A stretch of 64,000 nucleotides of DNA, taken from Deltaproteobacteria bacterium. Its GTDB lineage: Bacteria; UBA10199; JADGCS01. The translations under genes and the position numbers were made by a program. The notes below the pieces were generated by a model. That model was not told where the DNA came from. It worked only from the letters and a program-made list of their open reading frames with translations, and ran no database searches. The stretch is taken from NCBI GenBank assembly GCA_015228875.1, contig JADGCS010000007.1, positions 1,494 to 65,493 on the forward strand, in the 5' to 3' direction. Position 1 is the first letter of the stretch; each line of letters begins with the position of its first letter. Positions 14,183 through 64,000 of the stretch are shown here, piece after piece.

Positions 14183-14204
14183 TTAACACACCTTCAAGTT
14201 ACTA

Positions 14205-14277: not shown

Positions 14278-14289
14278 CGGACATTACAC

Positions 14290-34551: not shown

Positions 34552-36111
34552 CTACTGCACCTGAGAGAGGCTCATGATCACCACAAGGTCCTGAAAATCT
34601 GCGCCGGTTGTATCGCCTTCGTTCATGTTTGTCCCCAGCTCGAAGAGATAGATCACCTGATTGGCCTCTATACTGACAAGACCGGCCTCATCGAGATAGG
34701 GTTCCAAAAATTCGGCCACACTCTGCTGATCCCCAAAACCAACCATGGCAGGCGGGGCGTCTCCATTAACCAGCGTTTGCACCTGGCTTAAGTTTGTTGA
34801 GTTGTAGGTCCTGCTAAAATTGTTGCACGAGGCAAGGCTCGCCGTGGCACGTATGACGTAATCGCTTTCTGTTGTCGTGGTTGTTTCGTAGGACTCGCCA
34901 CCGTCTACATCGGCGCCGCTATAGAGTGCAGAGCAGACATTATCCTTGCAAAGCTCGACACTGACGTTGATTTCGGCCCCACCCACACCACAGGTGATCG
35001 AGGAACCAATGACATCAAGGTCGACAAGGTAGTTGGTCTCGACAGTGACCACCCCGTTTGTGACCTCAAAACCCTCTCCCAGAGCAGCAGAGGCATCAGG
35101 GACATCACCCGCCCTGAAGGTGCTTTCAAGATGACTGCCGTCCGAGAAATCAAAGCGGACCGTGTACCAGCCGCCGGAGACAGGTTCTGCTGAAAAAGTT
35201 GCATCAACCAGATAATTGTTGTCGTTATCTGTCAGGTTGAAATTGGAAACGTCGATCTCCTGTCCGGCAGAGGCCGCTGCTGTTGTTGCTGCGGGGATCT
35301 CTCCCACCTTAAAGATAGAGGTTCCGTTGACATCAATCTGTTGCACCGTTGCGTCCAGGGTCTCGTCCTCACAGGCCGCAAGATCAACAAGCTGATCCCC
35401 GCTTGCCGTGCATGAGGTCACAACGGGAAGATCTGCCTCGCAGGGACCTATATAATCCTGATTGTGATGTTCACCCTCTCCATTGTTGTGGCCATTGCGC
35501 CACCCGGCCTCGTTAACAGAAAGTGTGTGCGCGTTTTCGGGATTCCCCGGCGGCACATGGCAGATCCAGAACTTGCCGTTTGGAGGCTCGCCAATACCCG
35601 ACTGGTCTGCCTCACATCCGATACCTACAGCGCACGCGCTCCAGTCCCATGACACTGTTACCTTGGTCAGGATAGCCACTTCATTACAGCCCTTGTCCAG
35701 CGACATATTAAAAACCTGGTTATCCTGCTTGATGGCCGTACTTAAAACATCATCGACACAACTCCCCGCAAAATTGGCATTGATGGTCTGGGTCTTGACG
35801 GCATTGCCCACAGTCGCTGTGACGGTGATGGTCCCGGCTGCAGGATCGGTGGTCACATCAAAAGAACCCTTGCCGTCGAAGGTCTTGTTTGTCACAGCGG
35901 GGTCGTCTCCTTTGGAGAGTTTGTCCAGCGCCCATTGAATCCCCCCGTTACCGTAGGCCAGTGCCTTGACAGAATCGCTGTGATTGGCAGAACTGGATGT
36001 GTCGGTTCCCGAGATATTAACCACGGTTGTCGCCGCCGCAGCAAGCACAACCATCACCACAACCGCACCCAGCAGACTGCTCCCTCTGTTGTTTTTAAGA
36101 GTGTTAAACAT
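34552..36111 (-). CDS. PilX-like type IV pilus minor pilin / putative tip-associated protein (large, Cys-rich)
   Basis: 519 aa. The N-terminus (MFNTLKNNRGSSLLGAVVVMVVLAAAATTV) resembles the PilX N-terminal domain. The rest is Thr/Asp/Gly-rich with many Cys. Position after pilV/pilW. Confidence 0.5.
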   Translation of the reverse strand: MFNTLKNNRGSSLLGAVVVMVVLAAAATTVVNISGTDTSSSANHSDSVKALAYGNGGIQWALDKLSKGDDPAVTNKTFDGKGSFDVTTDPAAGTITVTATVGNAVKTQTINANFAGSCVDDVLSTAIKQDNQVFNMSLDKGCNEVAILTKVTVSWDWSACAVGIGCEADQSGIGEPPNGKFWICHVPPGNPENAHTLSVNEAGWRNGHNNGEGEHHNQDYIGPCEADLPVVTSCTASGDQLVDLAACEDETLDATVQQIDVNGTSIFKVGEIPAATTAAASAGQEIDVSNFNLTDNDNNYLVDATFSAEPVSGGWYTVRFDFSDGSHLESTFRAGDVPDASAALGEGFEVTNGVVTVETNYLVDLDVIGSSITCGVGGAEINVSVELCKDNVCSALYSGADVDGGESYETTTTTESDYVIRATASLASCNNFSRTYNSTNLSQVQTLVNGDAPPAMVGFGDQQSVAEFLEPYLDEAGLVSIEANQVIYLFELGTNMNEGDTTGADFQDLVVIMSLSQVQ

Positions 36112-42408: not shown

Positions 42409-42491
42409 CAAGTGACTCACTTGACCTTGACGCGATTGAGTGCTTCTATCATGCAAAGAATGAGCCCGCGCTCAATCAGCTTTGAAATTCT
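42409..42491 (+). mobile_element. MITE copy 7 (short), starting immediately after the prolyl oligopeptidase stop
   Basis: CAAGTGACTCACTTGACCTTGACGCGATTGAGTGC…GAGCCCGCGCTCAATCAGCTTTGAAATTC. Confidence 0.75.
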
Positions 42492-42502
42492 TGGACTTCG
42501 AG

Positions 42503-43997: not shown

Positions 43998-44588
43998 ATG
44001 AAGTCATGTTTACAAGTTACTCACTTGACTTTGACGCGATTGAATTCCTTCATTTTGCGAGGAGTGCGCCCGCGCTCTGTCGACTTTAAAATTCCTATCC
44101 ATAAACATGCCGCCATCGTTTTTTTGTATTTTATCGTTTTGTTCCTCCCTTTTTTAAGCCTTGCAAAAGAAAAGAGGGATGGGCCAGACTGCAAGGGTAA
44201 GTGCTCTGTCATCAATAAACAATGCGATGCGCATTGTGCGTTAAGTCCCAACGCGGGCGATTGTCAAAAGGGGTGCAATGCCTCCTTTAAGGATGCCAAG
44301 GGTTACTGCCTGAGTAGTTGTGCCACACAGCCCACGTTTTTAGAGCCTTGTCCCGGCTCGGGGGACGACCCCTCCGTCGAAAAAACCGAGGACGACTGTC
44401 TGTATTCCTGTGAGGATCACTACAGCAACTGTGTGCTGTCCTGCAGGGGCCATTTTGAAGGCGGTTCTCCCGGGATCAAAAACTGCTACAACAGCTGTAA
44501 CGATACCTTTGCCGAGGAAGAGGGGTTCTGCAAGTTTCAGTGCAGAACCGATTTTGATTTTATGGCGGTGTGTGCGGCAGAGGAATAG
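43998..44588 (+). CDS. Small Cys-rich, probably secreted, protein whose 5' end is formed by a MITE copy
   Basis: 196 aa. A hydrophobic segment (AAIVFLYFIVLFLPFLSLA) is followed by ~26 Cys in CxxxC/CxxC arrays. Codons 5-33 are translated from the MITE copy at 44013-44095. A GGGGGTG RBS precedes the ATG. Confidence 0.5.
   Translation: MKSCLQVTHLTLTRLNSFILRGVRPRSVDFKIPIHKHAAIVFLYFIVLFLPFLSLAKEKRDGPDCKGKCSVINKQCDAHCALSPNAGDCQKGCNASFKDAKGYCLSSCATQPTFLEPCPGSGDDPSVEKTEDDCLYSCEDHYSNCVLSCRGHFEGGSPGIKNCYNSCNDTFAEEEGFCKFQCRTDFDFMAVCAAEE
44013..44095 (+). mobile_element. MITE copy 8 (short) inside the 5' coding region of the Cys-rich protein gene
   Basis: CAAGTTACTCACTTGACTTTGACGCGATTGAATTCC…GTGCGCCCGCGCTCTGTCGACTTTAAAATTCC, translated as QVTHLTLTRLNSFILRGVRPRSVDFKIP. 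Confidence 0.8.
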
Positions 44589-47961: not shown

Positions 47962-50709
47962 ATGAGTTTTCCAGCCGTCAACAACCTGCATCAAGCCCTT
48001 GCTCAGTCGCCATTTGCGGGTGCAGTTGCGCTTAACACAAGGCTGCCGACTGACCTTTTGTACGACTTTGGCACACTGCGACAGCTCGCAGTAATACTTT
48101 CCGGTCAGGATAAAGTTTTGGCTGCCGAGGTCAAGGCGGTCACTGCAATACCTCATCGAAAAAATACTCCGAGATTTGATCGGCAATGGAGTGACTGCGT
48201 GAGTCTTATCGCAGGCAGGCAGTCCGCAAGAAGACAACAGCCAGAAACAGGAGAGCAAACAGCCCTGACAGGCAACACCCTGATTGAAGCCGTCCAACGG
48301 CAACTCGATGATAGAACAACCAGACAAGAATGGATCTCCCGCGCACTCGCCAGGGTCGGGGCAAAACAACGCACCAAAGAGGTGGTACTTGCACACATCG
48401 AACCCGTTAACAATCTCAGACTGCAGCTTGGTCCTGTCAGCAACAGAGACTATCGTGTGCAATTAAATGAACAGGGTGAGCTTGTGGTCGTCACCATGGA
48501 ATGCCCCAGCTCGTTAAGAGTCTTCTCGATGCCCATTGTAGAGCACCTGCTGGGCATGGGACTCAGGGCGTATTTTTTCACACCCCCCGCTCCCGCAAGC
48601 CCCCTTTTTACCAAGGTCTCCGCCGCAGATATCGAAGGCATTCATTCCGTCGATCAGGAGGTTGAACTCAACGCAGAATTAATCAGGGCCTTACAAACAG
48701 CAGGGTTTAATAAACTCTCCCAAGATGCAGTAAAAAAATTGAGGGAAAGAAAAGGCCTTGACCCGCAAACACTTATAGACATTGCATTTGAAGTCTCGGA
48801 GACCCACAAACACACAGGGCTTCAACTTTTAAGCACCGCCTTAAAGGCCAAAATACAAGATAATCATAAATCACTTTATGCCTCATGGAAGTTATTCTGC
48901 AACCAACTGATTTCGATGGATAGCAAAGAGAAGGGCAAGCCAGTCCCGGTCTCGATGGAGGATCTACAAGAGACCATTCTACTGACATCCATCGAAAACC
49001 CAGATAGAAGAAAATGGTTCGAGGACGGCCTTAAGTCCCTTGGTGTCCCCAATCCCAAGGCCATACTGGATGAAAAGCCGATTGATCTTGACAAGAGAAA
49101 GGCCGTTTATATCAAGATAAGCAGAACCCCGGGCAACGCATTTCATCTAGACCTTGATGCACCCGTTGGCGCATCCTCCATGCTGCTTAATATCGGTGTC
49201 CCTCGTTCGGTGACACACTTAAGCAAAGATAACATAAAGCTCCTGGTCGCTCTTGCCATTGTTAAAGAGGCGTTTGGTGATTACAACTCGGATAATCTGA
49301 TCGCCGAAACTGTGACGCTACAAAGCCTCTCCTCACCAAAAGACCTGCTCAAACCCCTCGCGTCGATGACACTATCAGCAGATAGTTACCGCAGAATCAG
49401 TGCGGACAGCCTTTCAAGGGAGCAACAGAAAGAATTGCAGGCGGTGATCCATATGTTTAAAGCCCTCACGAGCGTTGCCGCCCAGCAACACGCAAAGGAA
49501 TCTGAGGGCAGTGTTTTTCGAACAGAAAAAAGATCTCACGAAAAAATAATCGCCGGCGTAGCAGACAAACTTGAGCCCTTGTTTGCCATCCCCCATGCAG
49601 AGCATTTTTTTAAGGCCCTGAGCAAATGCCACATTGCCGATTTTAATATCGCCATCACGGTTGATGACACGATTGAGGGCCCGGTTGTTTCTGCACGGGC
49701 CATGGCTAAAAAGATCACATTTTTTATTAAGTGTGCCCACAAGGACATCCCCCAAATTAATGCACAGACACTGATAGCCCTGGTCCTCAGGTTTTTTGAC
49801 CGCGGTCTTGCCTCATCAAACAAACTGTTTGATCCACCCACCGAGCCCGATTCGATCATGGCCCTCGCAGCGCTCGAGGTGCTTCAAGAATTTCTTGTTT
49901 CTCCCAACACACCGCCAGAGAGGCTTGCCGTCACCGGCAGCGACGAAACCAAGCCCGTCAGGCAGGCGCTTGGTCACGCCATGATGGCGCTGCACGATTT
50001 TAGTAAGAGAACCGACAACCCGCTCCTCGGACACTTAAGCACCAACATGCTTTCTGCCCAGCGTTATCATGTTCAGGTGTTGACCACCACAGATGACACC
50101 ACAACCATCACAGCCCTGCCAACAGACCGCGGTGTTTTTATACAGATTAAGGGCAAGCAACAAAACATTAACGCAAAACAGTGGCTCTATCTGTTAACGG
50201 TGCTGGCAGATAATCCCGGAAAAGCAGTCTGCATCTGCATCAGGGGCAATGATATCAGCATTGTTTTTGGAACCCACAAGGCTGGCCGTGACCTCTACGC
50301 CAGTATAATCAGCGACGTGCGGCTGTTACGGTTTGGGGTCTTTGATCCCGCTGCCAAGAGGCCACAGGTCTCTCCAAAATTCCCCGGCGACAAGGCGGCC
50401 GATGCACATCCAAACTTTATGCAGAGTCCCTTGGCTCTGCGGCGGGCCTATATCAAGGCATTGATCTGGTTTGCCTATGCCCAAATACCCGATGAGCTTA
50501 AACCAACGGCCACTGATACCCCGAATGAAATCAAACAGAAAAAAAAGGCCATGAGTTTTGCCTATCATCCGGACAGACTCGGTCAACAATATAGAGGGGC
50601 AGAACTGGCAGAAAAAGCAGAGTTGTTCAAAACAGCCAACACGCATTGGGATACTATTGAGGCCATGAATAACGTGAACACACAATTTAACACACCAACT
50701 GATGCATGA
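47962..50709 (+). CDS. Large hypothetical protein, paralog B, with a C-terminal J-domain-like region (HPD motif)
   Basis: 915 aa. Shares the N-terminus MSF(H/P)AVN(R/N)LHQAL and a long conserved C-terminal block (QWLYLLT…ADNPGKAV…IISDVRLLRF…RALIWFAYA…KAMSFAYHPD) with paralog A. Confidence 0.7.
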   Translation: MSFPAVNNLHQALAQSPFAGAVALNTRLPTDLLYDFGTLRQLAVILSGQDKVLAAEVKAVTAIPHRKNTPRFDRQWSDCVSLIAGRQSARRQQPETGEQTALTGNTLIEAVQRQLDDRTTRQEWISRALARVGAKQRTKEVVLAHIEPVNNLRLQLGPVSNRDYRVQLNEQGELVVVTMECPSSLRVFSMPIVEHLLGMGLRAYFFTPPAPASPLFTKVSAADIEGIHSVDQEVELNAELIRALQTAGFNKLSQDAVKKLRERKGLDPQTLIDIAFEVSETHKHTGLQLLSTALKAKIQDNHKSLYASWKLFCNQLISMDSKEKGKPVPVSMEDLQETILLTSIENPDRRKWFEDGLKSLGVPNPKAILDEKPIDLDKRKAVYIKISRTPGNAFHLDLDAPVGASSMLLNIGVPRSVTHLSKDNIKLLVALAIVKEAFGDYNSDNLIAETVTLQSLSSPKDLLKPLASMTLSADSYRRISADSLSREQQKELQAVIHMFKALTSVAAQQHAKESEGSVFRTEKRSHEKIIAGVADKLEPLFAIPHAEHFFKALSKCHIADFNIAITVDDTIEGPVVSARAMAKKITFFIKCAHKDIPQINAQTLIALVLRFFDRGLASSNKLFDPPTEPDSIMALAALEVLQEFLVSPNTPPERLAVTGSDETKPVRQALGHAMMALHDFSKRTDNPLLGHLSTNMLSAQRYHVQVLTTTDDTTTITALPTDRGVFIQIKGKQQNINAKQWLYLLTVLADNPGKAVCICIRGNDISIVFGTHKAGRDLYASIISDVRLLRFGVFDPAAKRPQVSPKFPGDKAADAHPNFMQSPLALRRAYIKALIWFAYAQIPDELKPTATDTPNEIKQKKKAMSFAYHPDRLGQQYRGAELAEKAELFKTANTHWDTIEAMNNVNTQFNTPTDA

Positions 50710-50745: not shown

Positions 50746-52734
50746 TTGGCAGACAAGGAGAGAAAAATGTTACCCACAACCCCAAGAGTATTAACCGTAC
50801 AAACAATGCAGACCCCATCCGCCCTGATACAGGCCGTCAAGAGCACCTTTACAGACCTGCCAGACGCACCCGTCATGACACCGCACCAAACAGCAGAGTT
50901 CGAAAGGCTGGGGCACGCGCTTACAAGTCAAGGAGCAACAAAACACGGCATGGCATTGGTAAGAGCCTGCAGCAATACTGCTGCGGCTTCACCTGTAGAA
51001 TATACCAAACAGATAGTACGCGCTGTCGAAGCGCTCAGCAACGTTGAGACGCCCGCCTTTACCCTCGGCGGTGTGGCACTTGCAAAGGCTGGCGAGGTTT
51101 ATGGATTAAGACCTGAGCGGCAGGCGGATCCCACAAGTACCGAACTCACACAGCAATTGGATACGGGGTTAATAACTGAAACCCTTGATGTTGATATTGG
51201 CCATGATACTGGCAGCGAAAAGTTGGAAAAACCAGAGCCTGTTTTTTATCCCCACAATACAACACCCAAGGAAGAATCCGCCGTTGCCCTTGACCAGGCC
51301 ACCCTCGCAAGAGCAAGGACCAACATGGCAGAGGCAATGACTGCGCTTGCCAACGAATCCCCCATGCTCCCAGCCATGCTGCCCCTGCACCTTTCTGCCC
51401 TTATTATGGGAGAGATCAATGCCAATGTGGATCTGAGAACCGAGGCGGTCAGCTTTATTGCAGAGAGCGTCTACAATGCCACAATTTACGGTGCGGCTGT
51501 CATTGCCAATGTTGTCGATACAGGCCGCTTTCACCTGCCGCTCACCACAATCCCCGTCACCTGGAGCTCGCGCGTAGCCGACGAGGCACCACAGGTCGCA
51601 GATGCTATTGTCAATGGCATCGAAAATGTTCAAAATATCTTAAGAATAATAAGATCCTTGCGCGTAGCATACCCCGAGGCAATGGCATCACTGGCAACTG
51701 CTAATCCGGGTGCCTTTGGACCAGAGGCGCTCAGAGAACTTGGTAACATATATCAACTGCACGAATTGGCCGCCACACACCCGGCGCAAGACCTGGTGGA
51801 TTTTATCCTTGCAGGCGACATCCCCGTCCGATTTGTGAGCTTGGGGGAAGATCATGAGCTGATTAAGGTCAGGGCGCCGAGGTCTGATGGTCAACCCGTG
51901 AACTCAACACCAAGTGATTGGGCCGATCCCGTAAGCAATTTTTTGCAACGTGCGGATTGGACAGATTATGTGCGGACTTTCGATATCAAGGAATTCATTG
52001 CCGACTCCATGCCGACAGCATCCCAAGCAGAACAAAAAGTCCTTATCCATGTCCGTGAACTTGACTATCAAAGTAATCAAAGCAGGGCCTTCGAAATACT
52101 GTTGTCGAAAATCCTGCTTCCAAGACTCAAAGAGGAGGTCACAAGCCTCAACACATGGGGGATCACCCAGTTTGACATAGTCCCTGCAATGATAGAAGCA
52201 ATGATCGGGCGCGGTGAATACCAACAGGCACTGGTGCTCTATAATTTTACGCATAGCAGACTCCAGGAGATCTCTAACGCCGTGAACAGGATCGAATACC
52301 ATCAGGAGAGACTGTTCTTGATCGGAGAACGAAAGGCGCGCAATAAATTTCTTGCACTGGCCCGCCGGATGATTCGGGATGGCAATCTTGAGGCAGCACA
52401 ACGCCTCTCTCGTTCGATGGCCAGACAGGGCAGGGGCAGAGAGCCCGTGGTCAGGATAAAACAGGGGGCCCTCTCAAAACAACTGAGTTCAGTTGTTGCC
52501 TTCATTGCCGAGTCCATGAGGTCCTTGGGGGCGCTTCCCGCAGGCGAAGCCACACTCAGTCTCGCGAGTTCTGTGCCGTCCACAGCCTCTCTGATGGATT
52601 TCCGGAAATTCGACCCTCGGCTCAGCGTCGCTGATTACCTTGCGTTGTTTGGGATCCCTGCCCCGGGAAGCAAAGATGTACCCGCCCTTGGGGTTAGCGG
52701 GGCAACGGGATTTCGTGCAGGTAAAAGGCAATAG
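50746..52734 (+). CDS. Hypothetical protein (662 aa), last gene of the putative sigma-54 operon
   Basis: Long ORF with an AAGGAG RBS, 36 nt after the paralog B stop. No recognisable domain. Confidence 0.55.
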   Translation: MADKERKMLPTTPRVLTVQTMQTPSALIQAVKSTFTDLPDAPVMTPHQTAEFERLGHALTSQGATKHGMALVRACSNTAAASPVEYTKQIVRAVEALSNVETPAFTLGGVALAKAGEVYGLRPERQADPTSTELTQQLDTGLITETLDVDIGHDTGSEKLEKPEPVFYPHNTTPKEESAVALDQATLARARTNMAEAMTALANESPMLPAMLPLHLSALIMGEINANVDLRTEAVSFIAESVYNATIYGAAVIANVVDTGRFHLPLTTIPVTWSSRVADEAPQVADAIVNGIENVQNILRIIRSLRVAYPEAMASLATANPGAFGPEALRELGNIYQLHELAATHPAQDLVDFILAGDIPVRFVSLGEDHELIKVRAPRSDGQPVNSTPSDWADPVSNFLQRADWTDYVRTFDIKEFIADSMPTASQAEQKVLIHVRELDYQSNQSRAFEILLSKILLPRLKEEVTSLNTWGITQFDIVPAMIEAMIGRGEYQQALVLYNFTHSRLQEISNAVNRIEYHQERLFLIGERKARNKFLALARRMIRDGNLEAAQRLSRSMARQGRGREPVVRIKQGALSKQLSSVVAFIAESMRSLGALPAGEATLSLASSVPSTASLMDFRKFDPRLSVADYLALFGIPAPGSKDVPALGVSGATGFRAGKRQ

Positions 52735-54576: not shown

Positions 54577-54867
54577 ATGAAAATACCGGATTTTGAATGG
54601 GATGACCAAAAGAATAATGAAAATGTTACAAAACACGGCATTTCATTCTACGAAGCACAGTACGCCTTTAAAGATCCAAAGCGTGTTATCGCTGAAGACC
54701 TTGGGCATAGCGGCAAAGAAAAAAGATATTACTGTTTTGGTTCAGTCTCCAACGGGATTCTGACGGTAAGATTTACACACAGAAGCAATAAAATCCGAAT
54801 CTTTGGTGCCGGATACTGGCGCAAAGGAAAGGCTTTGTATGAAAAGGAAAATAAATTACACAAATGA
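54577..54867 (+). CDS. brnT: BrnT-family (DUF497) type II toxin
   Basis: 96 aa. DUF497 motifs (FEWDDQKNNENVTKHGISFYEAQYAFKDP…IRIFGAGYWRKGKALYE). Confidence 0.8.
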   Translation: MKIPDFEWDDQKNNENVTKHGISFYEAQYAFKDPKRVIAEDLGHSGKEKRYYCFGSVSNGILTVRFTHRSNKIRIFGAGYWRKGKALYEKENKLHK

Positions 54868-55075
54868 GCCAATCGGTGATCTCAATATTATCAAGGACTT
54901 TTTACCTTCTCCTGCCGATCTATGCTTTAATGACGACAACGTGAAGATCACCATTTCACTCAGCAAATCAAGTATTGATTTTTTTAAAAAACATGCAAAA
55001 AAGCACAAAACGCAATATCAAAAAATGATCAGAAAACTGCTTGATCTTTACGCTGTTCGTCACCAAAGAACGTAA
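54839..55075 (+). CDS. brnA: BrnA-family antitoxin (ribbon-helix-helix)
   Basis: ~78 aa starting MKRKINYT. It overlaps the brnT 3' end by 29 nt, as is typical for brnTA. Start chosen inside the longer track ORF. Confidence 0.75.
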   Translation: MKRKINYTNEPIGDLNIIKDFLPSPADLCFNDDNVKITISLSKSSIDFFKKHAKKHKTQYQKMIRKLLDLYAVRHQRT

Positions 55076-55099: not shown

Positions 55100-55846
55100 C
55101 TAGCGCGACCCACGATTTTGTCTTTTTCTAAGCTCCTTAAGGTTGTTGCTGGGAAATTCGTAATTATCAGGGGCCAGCGAAATTGACTTTTTCAACACAC
55201 GTTCGGCCTCATCTAATTGCCCTGCTTCTAATAAAGAATACCCCAAATCATTTAAATGAAAATAATTGTCTGGTTCCAGATCGTTTGCACGTCTGTGTTT
55301 TTTTACCGAATCTCCATAAAGCCCAAGTTTTCCCATACAATATCCCGATCCCACCAAATACAAGGCCTCATTTGGAAATGACTTCTCTGCGGCTAAATAC
55401 AATGTGAGGGCATTGGCGTAATCATGACAATCAATAAGAAAATCCCCGGCCTTATCGATAATAACACTCAAATCATCTTCATCTTCAGGCAATTTGGTAA
55501 GTGATAAAAACAGGTTCATGGCCTCATCTGGACGACCGACCTGATATTCTAATGAACCAACGGTCAGAATGGCTGGTGCATAAAGCGGATCAATGGCCAG
55601 TGATGCGAAAGCCTCAGGCCAATATGAGCTTCTAAGCCCTGTTCGACCCGCTTGTGCCAGAGCATTATTAAAAACATGACTGGCAACTTCCGAGTGATAC
55701 TGCCAATCTGCTGCATCCCTTCGTTGAGATTTTGTTTTTAAAGAGTTCTCGCGCCGCAGATCTGAGAGCTCTTGATCTTCTTTTATGAGGACAGAGAAGG
55801 ACTGTTTTTTAAATTTTGTGTGTCCATCTGTTTTCTTGCGTGCCAT
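55100..55846 (-). CDS. TPR-repeat protein
   Basis: 248 aa. Tandem TPR-like helical repeats (…ALTLYLAAEKSFPNEALYLVGSGYCMGKLGLYGDSVKKHRRANDLEPDN…). Confidence 0.6.
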   Translation of the reverse strand: MARKKTDGHTKFKKQSFSVLIKEDQELSDLRRENSLKTKSQRRDAADWQYHSEVASHVFNNALAQAGRTGLRSSYWPEAFASLAIDPLYAPAILTVGSLEYQVGRPDEAMNLFLSLTKLPEDEDDLSVIIDKAGDFLIDCHDYANALTLYLAAEKSFPNEALYLVGSGYCMGKLGLYGDSVKKHRRANDLEPDNYFHLNDLGYSLLEAGQLDEAERVLKKSISLAPDNYEFPSNNLKELRKRQNRGSR

Positions 55847-55861: not shown

Positions 55862-58579
55862 TTACGCCGCCATCTCCGCTGTGCCCATCTGGTATATTTT
55901 TGCGAGTGATGCCGCGAGCTGTTCCAACACACCCTCGTTGGGAAGCGTGACCGTGAGTTTGAGGTTGCCGCTCTCATCGCGATCCAGACAATCAGAGAGA
56001 TTTCTTTTAAACTGCTCAATGACCTTTTTGTTTTGTTCATCTCCCGCAATGTCCCCTCCCTTTTCGCGTGGCGTGAGGACCTCGCCCATAAAAGAAAAGG
56101 CGGCGCTCAAGAGTTCTCCACCGGCCATGGCCACTGTCTCCCTCTTTTTAATCAGGGCCGCCTCTGTCACGACCTTTTGTTCCTGACTCATATCCACTGG
56201 GGCGTCAGGTTTTTGGCCCACCAGGACCTCCAGACGTCTTTTGAGTTCTTCAATACCTACAGACATGTCAACCTGAGTAATGTTTGAGTCCACATCGAGC
56301 GCGGCAAAGGCCAGCTCCTGCTTGACAGCCAGTGTGTGCAAAAGACTCTCCTCGATCGTGTCGACTGTTACCAGCAGATAGACCTGTATGGCCCTCTTTT
56401 GACCCATGCGGTGTGCGCGGGATATCCTCTGCTCCAGAACCGCGGGGTTCCATGGCAGATCAACATTGATCACCGTATTGGCGGCCTGCAGATTAAGGCC
56501 CGTGCTCCCCGCGTTGGTGGTGATGAAGACCTTGCACCCCGGGTTGTTTTGAAACTGCTTCACCAGCCCCTGCCGTTTTTTTTGCGGCACAGAACCATCC
56601 AGACGAACAAACTCGGCCCCTGTCTGTTTAATCAACGGCTCTATCAGGTCCAGCATGGTCGTCCATTCCGAAAACAACACAATCTTGCGATCCTCCTCGG
56701 AAAGAAGTGTTTTTAATAACTCTTCGAGTTCCACAAGTTTTGAGGAATAACCCGGGGCCACCTTGTTGACGAGAAACGTGCTGTCTGCCGACATGCGGCA
56801 CATCAAGAGATACTTTTGCAGACGTAAAAGATCCATCTCGGAGATGTAGGGTTTGTTGATGATGCGGCTGATGATTTTTTTGTATTCTTTATCCAGACCA
56901 AGTTGTTCGTCTGTTGGTGTGATTCTCACAATCTGTGTTGTGCGCGGCGGAAGGTCCTCCATCACCGACTTGCGTGTACGCCTAAGGAGAACGGGCTTGA
57001 GTTTCTCGCGTATTTCGTCGAGATTTTTATACCCAAGCGGCTTGCCCTTTTCGTCAACAACCTTGTACCTGTTATAAAACCTGAACGCGGGGCCCAATTG
57101 ATGTTCGCTGATAAACTCGACCACAGAATAAAGCTCTTCAAGCCGGTTTTCGAGCGGCGTTCCCGTCAGCACAAGGGCATACTTTGACCTTAATGACTTG
57201 ATGGTCTGACTTGTCTTTGCCTCCCAGTTTTTAATCCTCTGGCCTTCATCCAGAATAATCAGGTCCCATGCGACTGATTCGATCTCGATAATATCACGCA
57301 GGACCTGTTCGTAATTGCACACAGTAAAAAAACAGCCGTTATTGTACTGCCCCCCCCTTTCTTTTTTGCTGCCAAGAATCGTCTGCACAGACCTGTCAGA
57401 AAATCTGTTAATCTCTTCGCGCCACTGAAATTTGAGAGAGGTGGGGCAGACAACCAGGGCCTTGCTTATGCCCGTCTGTTTGGCCAGCAACTCTGCCACA
57501 CCAATCCCCTGAATGGTCTTTCCAAGGCCCATGTCATCAGCAAGCACAGACCGCCCGGCCCCAACGGCAAAGCCTATCCCGTCCATCTGATACGGCAGCA
57601 ACTCTGTCTTGAGGAGTGTCTTTCTTAACGGATGGTCTTTGGGATCCTTGCGGATCTCCTGCGATATTTTTTTTAGTTTTTCCAAAGACAGTTGTTGCTG
57701 AATGTATTCTTCCGCATCGGAATAAATATTGACCGCAAACCCCCGGCCCTCCAATTTTTTGATGATCGACAAAAGAGAATGAATATCTGTGACTGGTTTT
57801 TTATACACCGGCCGGATGATGGCTGCTATTTCTTCGGAGGTGGTATCGGGTGTCAACAACCGGAGCTCCGGCGACAGCTGTCCATAATGCATATGCACAC
57901 CAAAACCTTTGCGCTTGTACGGCGTGTTTTGTGCCCGTGGCGAAAATTTTGTCTTGATTTTCTGTTGGGCATACAAGATGTGCTTGCAGACCCCCAGCGT
58001 ATTTTTTTTAAAATCGGAGCACGAACAGTAAGACTGGCCTCTTTCAAACCCGCGCATCGCCACGCGATAAGTCTTGCCAGAGGTCTTGCTGGACAAAAGA
58101 TAATCTGTCCATATTTTGTTTTTATCTGTGGATGTGAGGACCATGCGCTCCTTTTTGGCCCGCTCTATCCTCTCTTGAATAGCCCTTGCCACAAGGTCCT
58201 GCTCGCTTAAACTTTCGATGGGGATTTTGGGTGTGGGTTCTTTGGCAAGCCCCAGCGCCGTTTTTTCTTCGAGGATCAGCGACAATGTGGCACCCAGGTG
58301 TTCGCAGGGGCCTTGACAGACAGAGCACCCAAAATCGAGGGCGTTATTTTTAAGGGGATTAAGGCGAATGGTCGTGACCGCATCAGACATTTTTACGGTA
58401 AAAGACTCGGCGTCCTGTCTGACCTGCTCTTCTATGTTGATCTCATACTTGCCCCCCTTTTTTATCAACTCCTCACCTCCCTGCCCCAGCAAGCGACAGG
58501 CCTGCATGTATTTAAGGTGTGACAATCGATCCTTTAAGGTAATCTCGGTTTTGTTTTGACGCATCATGGTACTCCTCAT
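55862..58579 (-). CDS. SNF2-family helicase with an N-terminal SWIM zinc finger
   Basis: 905 aa. SWIM (CSCSDFKKNTLGVCKHILYA), SNF2_N (DDMGLGKTIQ; DLIILDEGQRIKN; LTGTPLENRLEEL), and helicase C (…ITTNAGSTGLNLQAANTVINVDLPWNPAVLEQRISRAHRMGQ). Confidence 0.85.
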   Translation of the reverse strand: MRSTMMRQNKTEITLKDRLSHLKYMQACRLLGQGGEELIKKGGKYEINIEEQVRQDAESFTVKMSDAVTTIRLNPLKNNALDFGCSVCQGPCEHLGATLSLILEEKTALGLAKEPTPKIPIESLSEQDLVARAIQERIERAKKERMVLTSTDKNKIWTDYLLSSKTSGKTYRVAMRGFERGQSYCSCSDFKKNTLGVCKHILYAQQKIKTKFSPRAQNTPYKRKGFGVHMHYGQLSPELRLLTPDTTSEEIAAIIRPVYKKPVTDIHSLLSIIKKLEGRGFAVNIYSDAEEYIQQQLSLEKLKKISQEIRKDPKDHPLRKTLLKTELLPYQMDGIGFAVGAGRSVLADDMGLGKTIQGIGVAELLAKQTGISKALVVCPTSLKFQWREEINRFSDRSVQTILGSKKERGGQYNNGCFFTVCNYEQVLRDIIEIESVAWDLIILDEGQRIKNWEAKTSQTIKSLRSKYALVLTGTPLENRLEELYSVVEFISEHQLGPAFRFYNRYKVVDEKGKPLGYKNLDEIREKLKPVLLRRTRKSVMEDLPPRTTQIVRITPTDEQLGLDKEYKKIISRIINKPYISEMDLLRLQKYLLMCRMSADSTFLVNKVAPGYSSKLVELEELLKTLLSEEDRKIVLFSEWTTMLDLIEPLIKQTGAEFVRLDGSVPQKKRQGLVKQFQNNPGCKVFITTNAGSTGLNLQAANTVINVDLPWNPAVLEQRISRAHRMGQKRAIQVYLLVTVDTIEESLLHTLAVKQELAFAALDVDSNITQVDMSVGIEELKRRLEVLVGQKPDAPVDMSQEQKVVTEAALIKKRETVAMAGGELLSAAFSFMGEVLTPREKGGDIAGDEQNKKVIEQFKRNLSDCLDRDESGNLKLTVTLPNEGVLEQLAASLAKIYQMGTAEMAA

Positions 58580-58626
58580 TGATTTGTTGGTACAAAAATT
58601 CTCCCATCAACACAATTTAATGTCTA

Positions 58627-58710
58627 GGAATTTCAAAGTTGACAGAGCGCGGGTGCGTTCCTCGCATAACGGAGGAACTTAAATCGCGTCAAAGTCAAGT
58701 TAGTAACTTG
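58627..58710 (-). mobile_element. MITE copy 10 (short, inverted orientation) between the SNF2 helicase and the TPR gene
   Basis: GGAATTTCAAAGTTGACAGAGCGCGGGTGCGTTCC…GCGTCAAAGTCAAGTTAGTAACTTG. Confidence 0.8.
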
Positions 58711-59651
58711 TCCAGCCTGCGCAGTCTGCCATAAAGCGGTTTGTGTCCTGCGGCCAGTGCCTCGTAGATGGTTTTAAGCCCTGCAACACGGTTGCACTTT
58801 CTGGCGCACATTTCAATTGTGTTAAGAAATTTAAAATTATCGAGGTTGGTTTGAATATTAAGGGCAAACAACTCAAAGGCCAGATCAAAGGCCTTGAAGC
58901 GATAACAGGTCCATCCGGCATCCACACCAAATTTGGACCTCAGCGGTTCGAGGTTTTTTTTGATGACCTCGCGAGCCCCCTCGACATCTGCTGTCTTGAG
59001 AAGTTTTTCGATGAGAGGGGGGATCAGATGGGGTGGGGTCTCGTCGCCAAGCTCTGCAAGGTCCTCCATTTCTTCGATCAAATCTTTCGAATCAAGCATC
59101 CGCGCCTTCATCTCGACCACCTTTTTTAGGGCAAACTCGTGATCCGGATATGCCTCCAGGAACATCCCGTATTGATCCAGCGCAAGCTGCCATTTTTTTT
59201 GTCTCTCATACAGCCAGCCCAGATCCATCCTTGCCGGGGGGTACTGCCTGACCAGCAATTCAAGGATGGGCCCAGCCTCTGCAAAAGCTCCCATTTGCGT
59301 GAGTGCCTTGGCCCGCCAGTATTCTGAGACCCTGTGAGGGTTCACCCTTGACGCCTCGGTAAAATAGGTGGCGGCCTTTTTGTAATCCTTGAGACCATAA
59401 TAGACATGACCTGCAAGCAGGAGCACCCTTCCCGAATCGGGGAAAAGTTTGGTTAACTGCAGGGCCAGGGTGGCCCCACTTTTATAATCCTTTTTTTTGA
59501 CAAGAAACTCCAGTTCCATGCCCCTTGTTTCGACAGAAAGGGGGTCAATCTGTTTGAGGTGGGAGAGGGCCGTGGCGGCCTCTTCAAGGTTTTTGTGTTT
59601 GAGGGCTTGAGATAAATTGTAGCGAAGGGTATGGACAGGGCCTGAAACCAC
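58695..59651 (-). CDS. TPR-repeat protein (start uncertain)
   Basis: TPR-like repeats throughout. The annotated 5' ~70 codons overlap the opposite-strand ATPase gene, so a GTG at 59651 is proposed as start. Confidence 0.55.
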   Translation of the reverse strand: MVSGPVHTLRYNLSQALKHKNLEEAATALSHLKQIDPLSVETRGMELEFLVKKKDYKSGATLALQLTKLFPDSGRVLLLAGHVYYGLKDYKKAATYFTEASRVNPHRVSEYWRAKALTQMGAFAEAGPILELLVRQYPPARMDLGWLYERQKKWQLALDQYGMFLEAYPDHEFALKKVVEMKARMLDSKDLIEEMEDLAELGDETPPHLIPPLIEKLLKTADVEGAREVIKKNLEPLRSKFGVDAGWTCYRFKAFDLAFELFALNIQTNLDNFKFLNTIEMCARKCNRVAGLKTIYEALAAGHKPLYGRLRRLDKLLT

Positions 59652-59714
59652 GGGGGCGTTTTGACAGAAACAACAACCATAAGTCAATTGATCAGTGTAG
59701 AAAAACAGCCCACC

Positions 59715-62700
59715 GTGGTGCGCCTTGACCACCTGAGTACTGGCGATGCAGGCTGGATCTCGCAGGGTTATTACCTGACAGAGCAGGTGCAGGGTTATCT
59801 TAAAAATCTTGAAAACTGCCTGTCTGCAAACAAGGGGCTTGGCTTTTTTCTCATTGGACATTTCGGTTCAGGCAAGTCCCATTTTCTTGCCTATCTGGCC
59901 CAACAGATCAAAACAGGGTCTTTGGCGGGGTTTGGGGTCCGGGCATACCCTGTGTCCCTGCTTAACTACAGGGCCGATCAAACACTCGAATCCATTATTG
60001 AATCAAACTTGGGGATAGCAGCAACTCATAAAGAACGAGATCTCAACTGGCAGGCGTTTGAATCACGCGTTTCATCAAAAAACATGCTCATCCTCGACGA
60101 ACTCTCCGAATTTTTAAGATCCAAGCCAACGCCGCAGAGCTTTAACGAAGACGTCCGGTATCTGCAGTATCTTGGGGAGCGGGGGCAAAATCACACCCTG
60201 TGGGTCATTGCCGCCATGCAGGAAAAAATAGAAAACACGGGCGAGATCGACGGCGATCTCTTTAGAAAGATCAGGGACCGCTACCCCGCACGATTCATAC
60301 TCAACCCGGCACATGTGCGCGACCTGATCAGCAGGAGGATCCTCAAGAAAAAAGAACCCTACAAAAAAGCGATGGACGGCCTTATTGCAAAACTCAAACA
60401 AAACTTTGCCGAAGATCAAATCAGTTACGCCGATATCGTCAATTTTTATCCCCTGCACCCGGAGACCATCAACCTGCTCGAAGAAATCCGCGACCGTTTT
60501 TCGCAGGCGCGCGGTATTATCGAATTCACGCTCTCGCGCCTTGCAGGCAATCCGTCACGCGGTATTGCGCCGTTTCTAGACAGGGACTTGGGAGAATTTC
60601 TCACCCCCGATTACATTGTCTCTCACTTCGAGGATCTTTTCGAGATACAACCCGAATTCATGCCCCTCTCCCGAAAGGTCCTCCCCTGCCTTAAAAAAGA
60701 ACTGCCCGCACTTTTTAACAACGAAAAACAGAGAGCGCTTGCCTTTCGCCTCTTAAACCTGCTGATACTGGCGCACCTCTCTCCTGTAAGAAACGGGATC
60801 ACCAGTAACAACGCGGTTCTCTGGTTACTGCAAAAAACCAGCACGGTCGATCCCTCCCGCAACAAAAAAATTATCGAGGGCATGCTCAACCAGATGGTGG
60901 ATCAAGCCTCTTACATCAAAAAAGCAGACGACCGTTTTTTTCTGGATATCGAGGACGACAGCAGACAGAATCTGGACAGGATTATCGAAAAAACAGCGGG
61001 CGAAATCAAAGACAGGGGAGAGTCTCTGTTTGACCTGCTCATCCCGCTGTTTAAATCCCCTGATTTTAATCCCTTCGAGACAGAGCAAAACACCTGGCAG
61101 ACACGTTCTGTCACATGGTACTTTCACCAACGAAAAATCTCCGTCTTTACGGGTGCGGCACCGCATCAGGACAAGACCACAAACCTGGAATCCGTAAAAC
61201 TTAAAATCCTCCTCCCATGGGGCAACAGGGAGACCTTAAGCGACGACATCCATTATTTTGTCCCCGACTCACTTAAACTGACACCCGACATCCTCGAACT
61301 CGCGGCGCTGACAAGCATCACAGAGCGTCCTCTGTCGCCAGACCTTATAAACAGGGCGCGGGAGAGGCTCAAGCAAAAAAGCGGGGTTTTGTTCAAGCAG
61401 GTCCGGATGTGCTTTATCTCCGGAGATATCATCTCCCCCTTCTGTCCACCACAAAAGCTGTTCCTCTCAAAACCCCCCCAGGACATGACAGAACTTGTCA
61501 ACACCTGTGCTATTGCAGTTTTTAAAAAAACCTACCCCCAGTTTGAATCCTATGCACCCTCAATGGGCCCCCTGCCGCCCTCCGTGTACAGGGAGTTTCT
61601 GATCTACGTGACAGAACATGACCTTTTTACCGGTGATCCCCCCGATAAAATTGCCCAGATCATCGAGGGCTACCTCGTCCCTTTAAAGCTCATTAAAAGA
61701 ATGGGGCGCGGTTACAGCGTCATGCCTCACCTCGAAAGGCACGAACTCGTGGCAAAAATAAGTCAGACCGCCGCGCAGGAGCCAAGTGTTGACAGGGTCT
61801 GCCAGATGTTTTTTAATCCGGTCTATGGTCTGGTGCCGGAGCAGGTTAATTTTCTTTTGCTGTTTCTTTTGATTCATGGCGAGATAGACATCATCAAAAA
61901 CGGCGTCTCGTACAGGGATGCCTGCCACGAACTCCCCAACCCTTCTGCGTACGATGTCATCACACCCGGCAAGGGCCTTTCGCCCCCCCAAATTCGAAAA
62001 CTCGAGGAGATCTGCTTTTCGCTCAATATCCGCACACCACAGCAGTGGAACGTCCTTGCGCAAAGGCAAATAGGCACACAACTCAGGGTACTGGCGCGCA
62101 AACAAAGGGATGATCTCGGCCGCTTTTTATCCCGTGTTCAAGAAGAAGACAATGCCGAAGAGGCACAAAGCCTCACGATGAACATTCAGCGTCTGATGTC
62201 GTATTGGCACGCACTGGAGGACAACGACGAACTCGATGGCCTTATGCAGTTTCTTTACCAAGTCGACGCGGCCCACACCTTTCTGGAACTGCATCAGGAC
62301 ATGATACTCCTGCAGGCGCAGATCGAAAAGCTGATCAGGGAGCGGGCCCGTTTTGCCCATTTGTTCTCCAATGCCATCTTTACAAACTGCACGGACCCCA
62401 TCATCAAAGACGGGGCAAAAGATTTCGTCACACGACCCACCCTCGCAGAACCCACAGAACTCAGGACCTGGCTGTCAGAGGCCGAAAAATTCTACCTCAC
62501 CTATACCCAGTGGTATAAAGAGGCTCACGCAAAATATCAGGACACATTAAAACAATCGCCTGCCTTTGGTTATACCCCGCCAAGGGTTGCAGACTTAAAG
62601 GCCGTGGGGCTTGATGGTCTCCTTGCAGAATTTAAAGCGGGGAGGGAAAAACTTAAACTGGCCCTGTGCCATGGTGTGTCTTCGCTCGAATTTTCGCCCC

Positions 62701-64000
62701 TGTGCCGCTGTGGTTTTGACGGCGAAAATACCACCACACTCTCTCTGATGTCGCGGTTGCGGGAACTTGCCGACACTTTGGAAGCAAGCCTTTGTCGTTT
62801 TTTTAAACAAAAAAATGTCTATCAAAAAATCAAGGCATGGGCAGAGGCGGGACAGCACCACATCCAGGGCGGCAATATCATCGATTATATCAATGGCAAG
62901 GCCCCCTATCCCGACCCGGGGGCTGATCTCGAACTCTTTAACAAACACCTGATGGGGTTGGAGACGTGCAAAAAAATCGAGATGCTGGAATTTTTAAAAC
63001 CTTTAACCAATCGCATCTGGAAGCACGCGGATTTTAAGGCAGAGGTCCTCAAGCAAATCCAGAATTTTCCAGAGGTCTTTCGTATCGAGACTGCCGAGAC
63101 CTCAAAGACAGGAGATGCTGCAATGATGGGCCTTGGATCGTGGTGCCTCGAACACGCCATCAGGCACGGTGTGCCGCTGCCCGATGCCATCAGCCACACA
63201 GGGCATCAGTGGGATGCCTCTGCGTTGATGCAGCAGGGTTGGGTGGGCGCCGCCTGTCTTGACAGACTTGAAGACTTAAACCTCGGAGAACAGGCAGAAG
63301 ACACAATACTCAAATGGATTTTTGAGGGGGCCATCCCCCTTGCCGCTTCCAACATCCGATCAGGGCTTGTCAAGACTGCGGGGTTTGTCCTCTCTCCACC
63401 AACAAACATCGAGATCACCGACCTTGCCGCCATTGTTCATGATGCCTACTGCCACCATTACAGATTTTTAAAGTTGCTGGGCAAAAAATGGCTGCAGTTT
63501 CTGGGCAATCTCTCCAACAACCACATCAATACCGCCCCGTCCCTGCTCTTTGATCTACTTGACAAAGAAAGGGCGAGTCAGTGGCTCTTGATTGACGGGT
63601 TTGGGATTGCCCTTGTCAATGCCCTTAAACCCGAAATTTCAAAATTGTTACCCGACTGGTCCCTCGAAAATGTGCGCTTCTGTCAGGTTGACGGCAGGAC
63701 AAGCACGGCAGCCTTTTGGGACGATGTGGTCCTAAAAAAATGGCATAAACAGATCGAAAAAATAAACGACATCGATCGTCTTGTGCATGAGCGCAAAGAT
63801 TTTATAGAGATTGTCATGCTCGCAAGGGCAGAACTTGGCCTTGCAATCAAAAAAATCATCAAAAGATTCGACCCCACAAAACCACTTCTTGTTTTTTCCG
63901 ATCACGGGTTTAGACTCAGCCCCGACGGCAAGTCCTTTATCCACGGCGGTCAAAGCGTCCTGGAGAGGACCGTACCGGTCATCAAGCTTTTACCCCGTTT
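59715..64000 (+). CDS. Large P-loop NTPase with a C-terminal PglZ (alkaline-phosphatase-like) domain, BREX/Pgl-related; truncated at the window end
   Basis: Open frame from ~59646 to the window end with no stop; absent from the ORF track, presumably because it lacks an in-window stop. Walker A (LIGHFGSGKSHFLAYL) sits ~50 aa from a probable GTG/TTG start. PglZ motifs (WLLIDGFGIALVNAL; LLVFSDHGF…FIHGGQSVLERTVPVI) lie near 63590-63980. Confidence 0.6.
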   Translation, partial: MVRLDHLSTGDAGWISQGYYLTEQVQGYLKNLENCLSANKGLGFFLIGHFGSGKSHFLAYLAQQIKTGSLAGFGVRAYPVSLLNYRADQTLESIIESNLGIAATHKERDLNWQAFESRVSSKNMLILDELSEFLRSKPTPQSFNEDVRYLQYLGERGQNHTLWVIAAMQEKIENTGEIDGDLFRKIRDRYPARFILNPAHVRDLISRRILKKKEPYKKAMDGLIAKLKQNFAEDQISYADIVNFYPLHPETINLLEEIRDRFSQARGIIEFTLSRLAGNPSRGIAPFLDRDLGEFLTPDYIVSHFEDLFEIQPEFMPLSRKVLPCLKKELPALFNNEKQRALAFRLLNLLILAHLSPVRNGITSNNAVLWLLQKTSTVDPSRNKKIIEGMLNQMVDQASYIKKADDRFFLDIEDDSRQNLDRIIEKTAGEIKDRGESLFDLLIPLFKSPDFNPFETEQNTWQTRSVTWYFHQRKISVFTGAAPHQDKTTNLESVKLKILLPWGNRETLSDDIHYFVPDSLKLTPDILELAALTSITERPLSPDLINRARERLKQKSGVLFKQVRMCFISGDIISPFCPPQKLFLSKPPQDMTELVNTCAIAVFKKTYPQFESYAPSMGPLPPSVYREFLIYVTEHDLFTGDPPDKIAQIIEGYLVPLKLIKRMGRGYSVMPHLERHELVAKISQTAAQEPSVDRVCQMFFNPVYGLVPEQVNFLLLFLLIHGEIDIIKNGVSYRDACHELPNPSAYDVITPGKGLSPPQIRKLEEICFSLNIRTPQQWNVLAQRQIGTQLRVLARKQRDDLGRFLSRVQEEDNAEEAQSLTMNIQRLMSYWHALEDNDELDGLMQFLYQVDAAHTFLELHQDMILLQAQIEKLIRERARFAHLFSNAIFTNCTDPIIKDGAKDFVTRPTLAEPTELRTWLSEAEKFYLTYTQWYKEAHAKYQDTLKQSPAFGYTPPRVADLKAVGLDGLLAEFKAGREKLKLALCHGVSSLEFSPLCRCGFDGENTTTLSLMSRLRELADTLEASLCRFFKQKNVYQKIKAWAEAGQHHIQGGNIIDYINGKAPYPDPGADLELFNKHLMGLETCKKIEMLEFLKPLTNRIWKHADFKAEVLKQIQNFPEVFRIETAETSKTGDAAMMGLGSWCLEHAIRHGVPLPDAISHTGHQWDASALMQQGWVGAACLDRLEDLNLGEQAEDTILKWIFEGAIPLAASNIRSGLVKTAGFVLSPPTNIEITDLAAIVHDAYCHHYRFLKLLGKKWLQFLGNLSNNHINTAPSLLFDLLDKERASQWLLIDGFGIALVNALKPEISKLLPDWSLENVRFCQVDGRTSTAAFWDDVVLKKWHKQIEKINDIDRLVHERKDFIEIVMLARAELGLAIKKIIKRFDPTKPLLVFSDHGFRLSPDGKSFIHGGQSVLERTVPVIKLLPR

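Follow-up and report, generated by a model that had tools for sequence, protein, structure and literature searches.

A TPR protein and a single-chain BrxC–PglZ fusion form a conserved two-gene module that looks like an undescribed minimal relative of BREX

It is not yet settled how BREX (bacteriophage exclusion) restricts phage. Between four and eight proteins are required in the systems known so far, and for two of them, BrxC and PglZ, the roles have only begun to emerge. The locus that we examine here raises the question of what these two proteins may do when they come as one chain. It lies in a stretch of 64,000 nucleotides from a Deltaproteobacteria bacterium (GenBank assembly GCA_015228875.1, contig JADGCS010000007.1, positions 1,494 to 65,493), which we call the window, and at the end of which a single open reading frame (ORF) encodes an ATPase of the BrxC type followed by a C-terminal domain of the PglZ type. 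The original prediction, made from the letters of the window, had placed this frame in a larger defence island. We find that the conserved unit is a self-contained two-gene module, which consists of a tetratricopeptide repeat (TPR) protein of 318 amino acids (aa) and of the 1,452-aa fusion. It has the appearance of a minimal BREX relative that has not been described before, and its function is a prediction.

Is the fusion real? Its gene occupies 59661..64000 on the + strand, from a TTG start codon at 59661, with the last 6 codons and the stop just beyond the window. The frame is open from 59646 through 64000, where the window ends, so that the original prediction was right about its openness; the start, which it had put at about 59715, has to be moved to the TTG codon of an NCBI entry that is 100% identical to the fusion and counts 1,452 aa (P0001, "hypothetical protein HQM16_02550", from a Deltaproteobacteria metagenome-assembled genome, on a 65,640-bp contig). 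Since this entry ends 6 residues past the window, the fusion protein is essentially complete. The Walker A motif GHFGSGKSH is encoded at 59856-59882, and the PglZ motifs follow in the same frame: QWLLIDGFGI, with the LLIDGFG motif (~63585), at 63579-63608; LLVFSDHGFR, with the FSDHGF motif (~63894), at 63885-63914; and FIHGGQSVLERT at 63936-63971. The fourth of the motifs quoted by the original prediction, the C-terminal HGGQSVLERTVPVI, was located at ~63942. All four are thus found in one frame, as had been claimed, and this frame is intact through the PglZ motifs, with neither stop nor frameshift before them. The frames of the homologues are intact as well, and their lengths are uniform in more than 100 of them.

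The C-terminal part of the protein (residues ~1200-1446; 63258..63998, + strand) comprises a helical linker and a compact catalytic core, which we assign to the PglZ-type domains of the alkaline phosphatase superfamily. When a structure model of the last 400 window residues of the fusion (pLDDT 86.8) was compared to the PDB with Foldseek, PorX came first (E 5e-6, probability 1.00), and the next matches were cofactor-independent phosphoglycerate mutase, phosphopentomutase and EptA/MCR-1. On this model, the domain has an alkaline-phosphatase-superfamily fold that is nearest to PorX and to BREX PglZ. An Asp ends the first strand and a Thr begins the next helix; with a DxxxH pair, a strand that ends in a DH pair, and a last His, they make up an arrangement that we take to be the NPP/PglZ two-metal site layout. 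Nine residues of the domain, D1312, T1349, K1367, D1372, H1376, D1414, H1415, H1428 and E1435, are invariant in multi-phylum alignments of 29 and 40 sequences, and the equivalents of PorX T272/H500 and of PglZ T538/H741 are conserved in the fusion family, T1349 being paired with its counterparts by its position in the model. The catalytic core is unusually small, with ~135 residues that align to NPP enzymes. A profile of the C-terminal domain, run against 1.84 billion cluster representatives, collected 201 proteins, 110 of them at E<=1e-30; the PglZ-type domain stands at the extreme C-terminus in nearly all of the 201 and always in the 110, while the shorter matches look like contig-end fragments. 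The same profile reaches a distant protein, P0299, whose own C-terminus has a "faint" precomputed Pfam PglZ match; hhalign gives the link between the two a probability of 96.3%. Fold searches and invariant catalytic residues thus agree with the original claim that a P-loop ATPase and a C-terminal PglZ domain share one polypeptide. The fusion is real and, as predicted from fold and motifs, its PglZ domain is genuine but strongly reduced and divergent.

The N-terminal part of the fusion belongs to the BrxC/PglY ATPase family. Its first 550 residues (59661..61310, + strand) form a BrxC-like module, in which an AAA+ ATPase of the ORC/Cdc6 clade is followed by a lid and a winged helix. The Walker B motif LILDELSE is encoded at 60087-60110, with D146 and E147 at 60096-60101; these two residues, the Walker A motif and several arginines are invariant in the alignments of 29 and 40 sequences. 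The BrxC/DUF6079-type model PF19557 (BrxC-PglY_N) matches the fusion above its gathering cut-off (E 4e-20; 71.3 bits for a cut-off of 23), in a match that spans only profile positions 163-491 of 1,238. The NCBIfam model BREX_BrxC matches it at E 1.8e-23, over residues 161-871 of a 1,428-aa query translated from 59715-63998 of the window (~179-889 in the numbering of P0001), with 82.8 bits for an equivalog cut-off of 400; by its score, the ATPase is a homologue and not an equivalog. Weak BrxC and SspC matches were given by PADLOC, and a family profile search of the PDB sequences picks up the solved BrxC chains. The structure model agrees: with an AlphaFold2 model of residues 1-1100 (pLDDT 85.2), the best Foldseek matches are solved Acinetobacter BrxC (9zdx_C, 9zll; E ~1e-8, TMt 0.52), and then ORC/Cdc6. 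The order of the modelled domains, namely AAA+ core, lid, winged helix, alpha+beta domain, two more winged helices and a long helical arm, matches the domain plan that Rakesh & Krishnan gave for BrxC (10.1101/2025.10.09.681413, section "BrxC ATPase"). After the long helical, coiled-coil-like region comes a loop with three cysteines, C1003, C1015 and C1017 (CHGVSSLEFSPLCRC; 62667..62711, + strand), which are invariant in both alignments. The loop is modelled with neither helix nor strand (pLDDT ~83-85), and the cysteines are possibly a zinc knuckle or hook that binds a metal. The catalytic residues predicted for the two enzymatic domains are all conserved and intact.

Which genes belong with the fusion? 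We gathered 82 related loci, of which 81 are distinct (L002 and L074 are the same), compared all of their flanking ORFs and located their neighbours by tblastn. The sole conserved neighbour family is that of the TPR gene at 58695..59651 on the - strand, the one conserved partner, which the original prediction had overlooked in that role. It encodes a cytoplasmic protein with Pfam TPR matches and no signal peptide, from a GTG start at 59651, and it stands head-to-head with the fusion gene. A longer, 388-aa reading of this ORF was dropped, because the homologues and NCBI favour the 318-aa GTG start; the NCBI entry (P0121, 318 aa) is 100% identical. The protein defines its own orthologous family, with members of 310-334 aa and no signal peptide, and it diverges at a rate similar to that of the fusion (34-43% vs 35-47% identity). 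The TPR gene adjoins the fusion in 70 of the 81 distinct loci, across at least 8 phyla. The two genes are head-to-head in 67 of these 70 loci, co-directional with the TPR gene downstream in 2 and convergent in 1, and the start codons of the head-to-head pairs are separated by a median of ~105-109 bp, with a usual range of 20-470 bp. In the window, the annotated start codons of the two genes are only ~9 bp apart (59651-59661), and therefore both promoters would fall within the opposite gene; a scan for promoters and terminators from 58.4 to 60.0 kb found nothing above chance. With an alternative start of the fusion, TTG 59688, the gap to the TPR start codon would grow to 36 bp.

Eleven loci are without the TPR partner: 4 of them have no upstream sequence and 7 have unrelated genes at that place. 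One of these upstream genes is an IS91 transposase and another a PIN toxin. In one locus without the usual partner (L049, 353-2188), the upstream gene codes for a TPR–GGDEF diguanylate cyclase. Three long members of the fusion family, P0187 (1,702 aa), P0196 (1,675 aa) and P0198 (1,783 aa), are annotated with an N-terminal extension of 250-350 residues in which Pfam finds no domain, for which reason we rejected P0187 and P0198 as TPR fusions. These long N-termini probably reflect start codons called too far upstream, in high-GC genomes whose divergent TPR gene is then read in antisense.

How far does the family extend? At least 434 relatives of the fusion are present in the protein database, the best 120 of which are 1,377-1,485 aa long and 35-41% identical to it. 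Among 185,579 species genomes (one genome per species), 363 loci were found, that is, a patchy ~0.2%, with hosts in Acidobacteriota, Myxococcota, Planctomycetota, Gammaproteobacteria (many of them Methylococcales), Gemmatimonadota, Binatia, Schekmanbacteria and Acidimicrobiia. Two of the hosts are cultured, Sulfidibacter corallicola M133 (locus L019, at about 3.897-3.922 Mb of NZ_CP071793.1) and Acanthopleuribacter pedis KCTC 12899. In a neighbour-joining tree of the proteins, the clades are lineage-specific, with some mixing across phyla.

There is also a second, distant clade of BrxC–PglZ fusions (P0299, of 1,728 aa, P0283 and P0295-P0297; 1,654-1,774 aa). Like the window fusion, these are single chains with a BrxC-PglY_N part and a C-terminal PglZ domain, the one for which P0299 has its faint Pfam match, but they are 200-330 residues longer; P0295 and P0001 are 32% identical in the ATPase. 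The single locus of this clade that is fully seen, that of P0299 (L083, 9033-15187, GCA_023264995.1 JAHFUR010000040.1), lies in an integrative element: the segment also holds an integrase, a TrwC relaxase, an HTH_17 gene and a DUF4160/DUF2442 pair (small and toxin–antitoxin-like). Immediately upstream of the fusion is a co-directional TPR gene of 323 aa that overlaps it by 4 nt. P0299 is ~20% identical to an intermediate protein, P0290, at whose locus (L084, 6504-12967) a truncated PglZ protein of 988 aa is preceded, at a distance of 2.5 kb, by a 330-aa TPR gene; the uncalled 2.5-kb gap before the PglZ ORF suggests a frameshifted or mis-called fusion gene. The TPR proteins of the second clade barely resemble that of the window (BLASTP E 6e-4, collinear). 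The pairing thus outlasts a change of gene order and a fall of sequence identity to ~20%, which is strong evidence of a functional coupling between the TPR protein and the fusion.

Does the module have further members? The original prediction had the system continue beyond the window, with a methyltransferase or BrxL among its unseen partners. In fact, the gene ends 6 codons past the window and nothing is conserved downstream of the fusion in the 81 related loci, the flanks of which have no conserved methyltransferase, BrxA, BrxB, BrxL or nuclease family. Scans of the window genes (for the first 30 kb, the best 25 of 41 Pfam families) gave no PglX/BrxX methyltransferase, PAPS reductase, BrxA, BrxB or BrxL, and no adjacent pglX-like gene, and PADLOC gave no BREX match for any window neighbour of the fusion. 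Nor is the locus a canonical BREX system with a separate PglZ gene, since BrxC and PglZ are here in one ORF. As the separate genes, the methyltransferase and the accessory genes are all missing, the module should not be filed as BREX.

The nearest known systems each share a part of the module. The Type I BREX core of BrxC (PglY), BrxB and PglZ (9zdx, 9zll, 9zn5, 9nv3) has an ATPase of the same AAA+ family, the solved BrxC being our best match, and the same PglZ-type phosphoesterase fold and catalytic residues. However, in Type I BREX, BrxC and PglZ are joined via BrxB (PMC13326643, PMC12205998), whereas here they are one chain, and the module is without BrxA, BrxB, BrxL and PglX, the TPR protein being its only partner. 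The type-3 BREX-related systems resemble it in having a minimal PglZ catalytic domain, free of accessory domains, together with a BrxC-like AAA+ ATPase, but their DUF499 ATPase and PglZ are encoded by separate genes, and they always come with a methyltransferase and an SNF2 helicase and usually with an inactive STAND protein, none of which is conserved at the module. The HerA/FtsK-centred system (PglZ, DUF6079, STAND, DUF4007, HerA, GNAT and TGT) likewise combines a DUF6079/BrxC-type ATPase and a reduced PglZ outside canonical BREX; it has seven components in separate genes, in 45 taxa, and its other five components are not near the module. Finally, PorX (7pv7), a response regulator of type IX secretion, has the fold nearest to the C-terminal domain of the fusion, but its PglZ domain is fused to a receiver and has a signalling role, with no AAA+ ATPase and no TPR partner. 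Neither a BrxC–PglZ fusion nor a PglZ/TPR module is described in the literature that we searched, and PADLOC 2.0 has no dedicated model for the pair. To our knowledge, no published defence catalogue lists it. The fused arrangement had been called uncommon, and this holds: the architecture is neither annotated, Pfam giving DUF6079 only, nor found described. In the studies cited here (10.1101/2025.10.09.681413, PMC12205998, PMC13326643), BrxC–PglZ pairing is described only for BREX and BREX-related systems, and a BREX survey of 2025-26 never mentions TPR (10.1101/2025.10.09.681413).

The other genes of the proposed island are best considered with respect to their recurrence beside the fusion. 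The SNF2-family helicase (55862..58579, - strand, 905 aa) is well supported as such by Pfam (SNF2-rel_dom 3.6e-45, with Helicase_C), and the SWIM part of its description stands as an N-terminal SWIM-type Cys/His motif (CxCx(n)CxH, aa 185-200) to which the Pfam SWIM model gave no score at E<=0.01. It stays under every NCBIfam cut-off, with matches to the core only (ZorD 148/1,500; DrmD 157/950; DpdE; pilus Snf2), and the PADLOC scan found no Zorya, DISARM or Dpd partner near it. A related SNF2 protein (29.6% identity, in the helicase core) is encoded beside the fusion in a single further contig (L002=L074), that is, in 1 of 80 other loci, or about the chance level, and we rejected the helicase as a component of the module. 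That contig also has, within 10 kb upstream (1-375, 4709-4843), a fragment of a second BrxC-PglY_N-type gene and a 44-aa N6_Mtase fragment, as well as a DUF4160/DUF2442 pair and an IS91 transposase; these surroundings may be a decayed or rearranged defence region. The second TPR protein, TPR248 (55100..55846, - strand, 248 aa), begins 15 bp downstream of the SNF2 gene. Both of the TPR proteins of the original prediction are confirmed by Pfam, the length of the partner being 318 aa and not 388; TPR248 has no tblastn match in the 82 related loci.

Next to these genes lies the toxin–antitoxin pair (54577..55075, + strand), composed of BrnT (54577-54867) and of an overlapping BrnA-like ORF to 55075. 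The first is secure (76.9 bits for a cut-off of 34.5) and the second is a weak match (17.1 bits for a cut-off of 26.1, E 0.0074), which overlaps BrnT by 29 nt if it starts at a probable ATG at 54839. BrnT recurs in a single related locus (L075), at 7 kb from the fusion. The AT-rich dip that had been noted around the pair is real and is confined to BrnT (GC 0.385), BrnA (0.338) and TPR248 (0.427); it ends before the SNF2 gene (0.498), and the GC content of the TPR partner (0.506) and that of the fusion (0.502) agree with that of the whole window (0.487), so the foreign origin that was read from this dip is not supported for the module, which we rejected as part of the low-GC insert. BrnTA is an insert unrelated to the fusion module, and the helicase, TPR248 and BrnTA, which rarely or never recur beside the fusion, are not supported as parts of one island with it.

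The proposed MITE copy is borne out as a copy of a dispersed repeat of ~100 nt, which we describe as MITE/REP-like (miniature inverted-repeat transposable element or repetitive extragenic palindrome). It lies at 58616..58711, between the start of the SNF2 gene and the 3' end of the TPR partner gene, where it is covered by repeat families D1, D3 and D4 and by inverted pairs I5 and I8-I10. At least 9 copies are present in the window, in both orientations and with 75-93% identity (3950-4070, 8315-8418, 11205-11301, 14191-14287, 28855-28975, 42405-42501, 44009-44105, 45263-45359 and 58616-58711). An Rfam scan of the whole window gave no match, the repeat included. Two copies fall within predicted ORFs, at aa 97-127 of 44979-47684 and at aa 6-36 of 43998-44588; the repeat would then be translated, unless parts of these ORFs are not real. 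The rest of the window is core chromosome from 0 to 30 kb (flagellar export genes, DNA polymerase III alpha, methylmalonyl-CoA mutase, HflX), and from 30 to 54 kb it holds prolyl oligopeptidase, HupE, a Crp regulator, a SpoU methylase, a permease and several large proteins without a family. Among the latter, the + strand ORFs 44979-47684 (901 aa) and 47962-50709 (915 aa) lie in tandem and are paralogues with 44.6% identity; after them comes a 662-aa ORF (50746-52734, +). None of the three has a match in Pfam, to which the scan of the 901-aa ORF was confined. In NCBIfam the 915- and 662-aa ORFs likewise match nothing, and with PADLOC the 915-aa ORF gave a weak match to a type IIG enzyme (E 0.0016) and the 662-aa ORF gave none. 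A 977-aa ORF (30879-33812) and a 519-aa ORF (34552-36111, - strand) have no Pfam family.

What might the module do? BrxC oligomerises with ATP and binds DNA, and its AAA+ domain binds the BrxB:PglZ sub-complex (PMC13326643); PglZ has a nuclease/phosphodiesterase activity for which T538 and H741 are essential and which NTPs inhibit (PMC12205998). The BrxC part of the fusion would, as solved BrxC does, bind DNA and oligomerise under the control of ATP, and this assembly on DNA may deliver, position or gate its own PglZ nuclease, which would cut DNA or oligonucleotides. Being in one chain would hard-wire the association of BrxC and PglZ and stand in for the bridging by BrxB. The TPR protein would be a binding partner, as a sensor of the trigger, an adaptor or a brake on the enzyme. 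Because the module has no methyltransferase, the choice of target, or the discrimination between self and non-self, cannot be achieved through methylation of the BREX type. A methylation-independent, BREX-derived ATPase–nuclease module with a predicted role in defence is thus plausible, and the chances appear to us evenly balanced that this predicted role is anti-invader restriction by a BREX-derived "restriction core". The patchy distribution over species genomes, the partial mixing of phyla in the protein tree and the pairing of BrxC with PglZ, which the studies cited above describe only for BREX and BREX-related systems, lean towards defence. The complete proposal is more tentative: it is possible that the TPR gene and the BrxC–PglZ fusion, in two deep clades and hundreds of species, are an unrecognised methylation-independent immune system, a bare BREX restriction core that unites ATPase and nuclease in a single chain and is switched by a TPR sensor.

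Several observations weigh against an immune system. Scans of 72,556 plasmids, 50,697 phage records and 2.9 million viral contigs (including IMG/VR) turned up no family member. Conservation is even along the fusion, in which indels are almost absent and no stretch stands out as a hypervariable sensor, and the module is syntenic in related genera (L019/L055, L025/L065, L001/L068). In ~55 loci, the two nearest ORFs on either side are housekeeping genes of diverse kinds (H+-PPase, DAHP synthase, GlyRS, 6PGD, FlgK), and these 141 flanking ORFs include two integrases and a handful of scattered matches to defence models. This housekeeping, syntenic and plasmid-free context argues against a classical mobile defence island. 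In addition, the two partner genes are usually divergent and not co-transcribed. As for the partnership itself, the TPR gene is absent from 7 of the 77 assessable loci, although these have room upstream. The PglZ assignment itself draws on a predicted structure and on motifs: the search with PF08665 that was to confirm it gave no match at E<=10 in the last 433 or 566 residues of the window protein and none in the C-termini of the 18 family members tried, no precomputed PF08665 match exists among 120 homologues, and a profile search of the PDB sequences with the C-terminal alignment, which lines up the DHGF and HGGxSxxE blocks with those of Salmonella PglZ and PorX, gave these two at only E 0.09-0.4, which is non-significant. 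The genomic context would suit a machine of the same two genes that has a cellular, non-immune job, with the TPR protein as an adaptor, for instance in DNA maintenance or repair, where a helical-arm ATPase with a phosphoesterase recalls SbcCD/Rad50-Mre11, or in the turnover of (cyclic) oligonucleotide signals, as for PorX. Fixed lengths, flanks with no enrichment in defence genes and a GC content equal to that of the window all fit such a job, and PorX and PglZ cleave cyclic and linear oligonucleotides (PMC12205998). However, a core function would hardly be confined to ~0.2% of the species genomes, scattered across phyla that mix in the protein tree; the distant clade is found inside an element with integrase and relaxase; the TPR partner has been lost in those 7 loci, once beside an IS91 transposase; and in the studies cited here (10.1101/2025.10.09.681413, PMC12205998, PMC13326643) BrxC is described only in BREX-type systems. 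Where the module is syntenic, the fusion diverges as quickly as its flanks or quicker (48.5% identity between the fusions of Sulfidibacter and Acanthopleuribacter, with flanks at 48-72%; 52.7% between those of two Methylococcaceae, with flanks at 50-74%). We regard the cellular role as somewhat unlikely.

Two other explanations fare worse. The earlier view was that the fusion works within a larger BREX/Pgl-like island that uses the SWIM-SNF2 helicase, both TPR proteins and unseen downstream genes (a methyltransferase, BrxL or a nuclease). It can point to the genes of TPR318, SNF2 and TPR248 being on the same strand of the window with gaps of 115 and 15 bp, to the related helicase in the one other contig, to SNF2 helicases being components of BREX type 3 and BREX-related systems (10.1101/2025.10.09.681413), and to ~1.6 kb of the source contig that lie unseen past the window. 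These 1.6 kb are too short for a gene of the size of pglX, however, and with a helicase that falls under every defence-family cut-off and is found beside the fusion about as often as by chance, a TPR248 that recurs nowhere, and no methyltransferase, BrxA, BrxB or BrxL conserved in the flanks, we consider this island improbable. It would be more surprising still if the C-terminal domain were a degenerate, non-catalytic remnant, or the locus a decaying BREX fragment, with a likeness to PglZ that is structural only. The blindness of the Pfam PglZ model and the small core would be explained in this way, but the seven metal and nucleophile positions, along with K1367 and E1435, are invariant across phyla, the homologues keep uniform lengths and intact frames, and the domain never leaves the C-terminus in the 110 strongest clusters, so that we give this explanation very little credence.

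What, then, does the module mean for BREX and its relatives? A natural single-chain BrxC–PglZ protein is "Rosetta-stone" evidence that both proteins act as one physical unit, and the persistence of the fusion in the absence of any methyltransferase suggests that the BrxC/PglZ pair can work without epigenetic marking. As the PglZ domain is invisible to the Pfam and PADLOC models used, surveys of defence systems will miss the family. With two genes and with cultured hosts in Sulfidibacter corallicola and Acanthopleuribacter pedis, the module is small enough for testing. If it is indeed an immune system, it would provide a two-gene model for how BREX stops phage DNA, and if it is not, a cellular role would be seen for the first time in a BrxC/PglZ pair.

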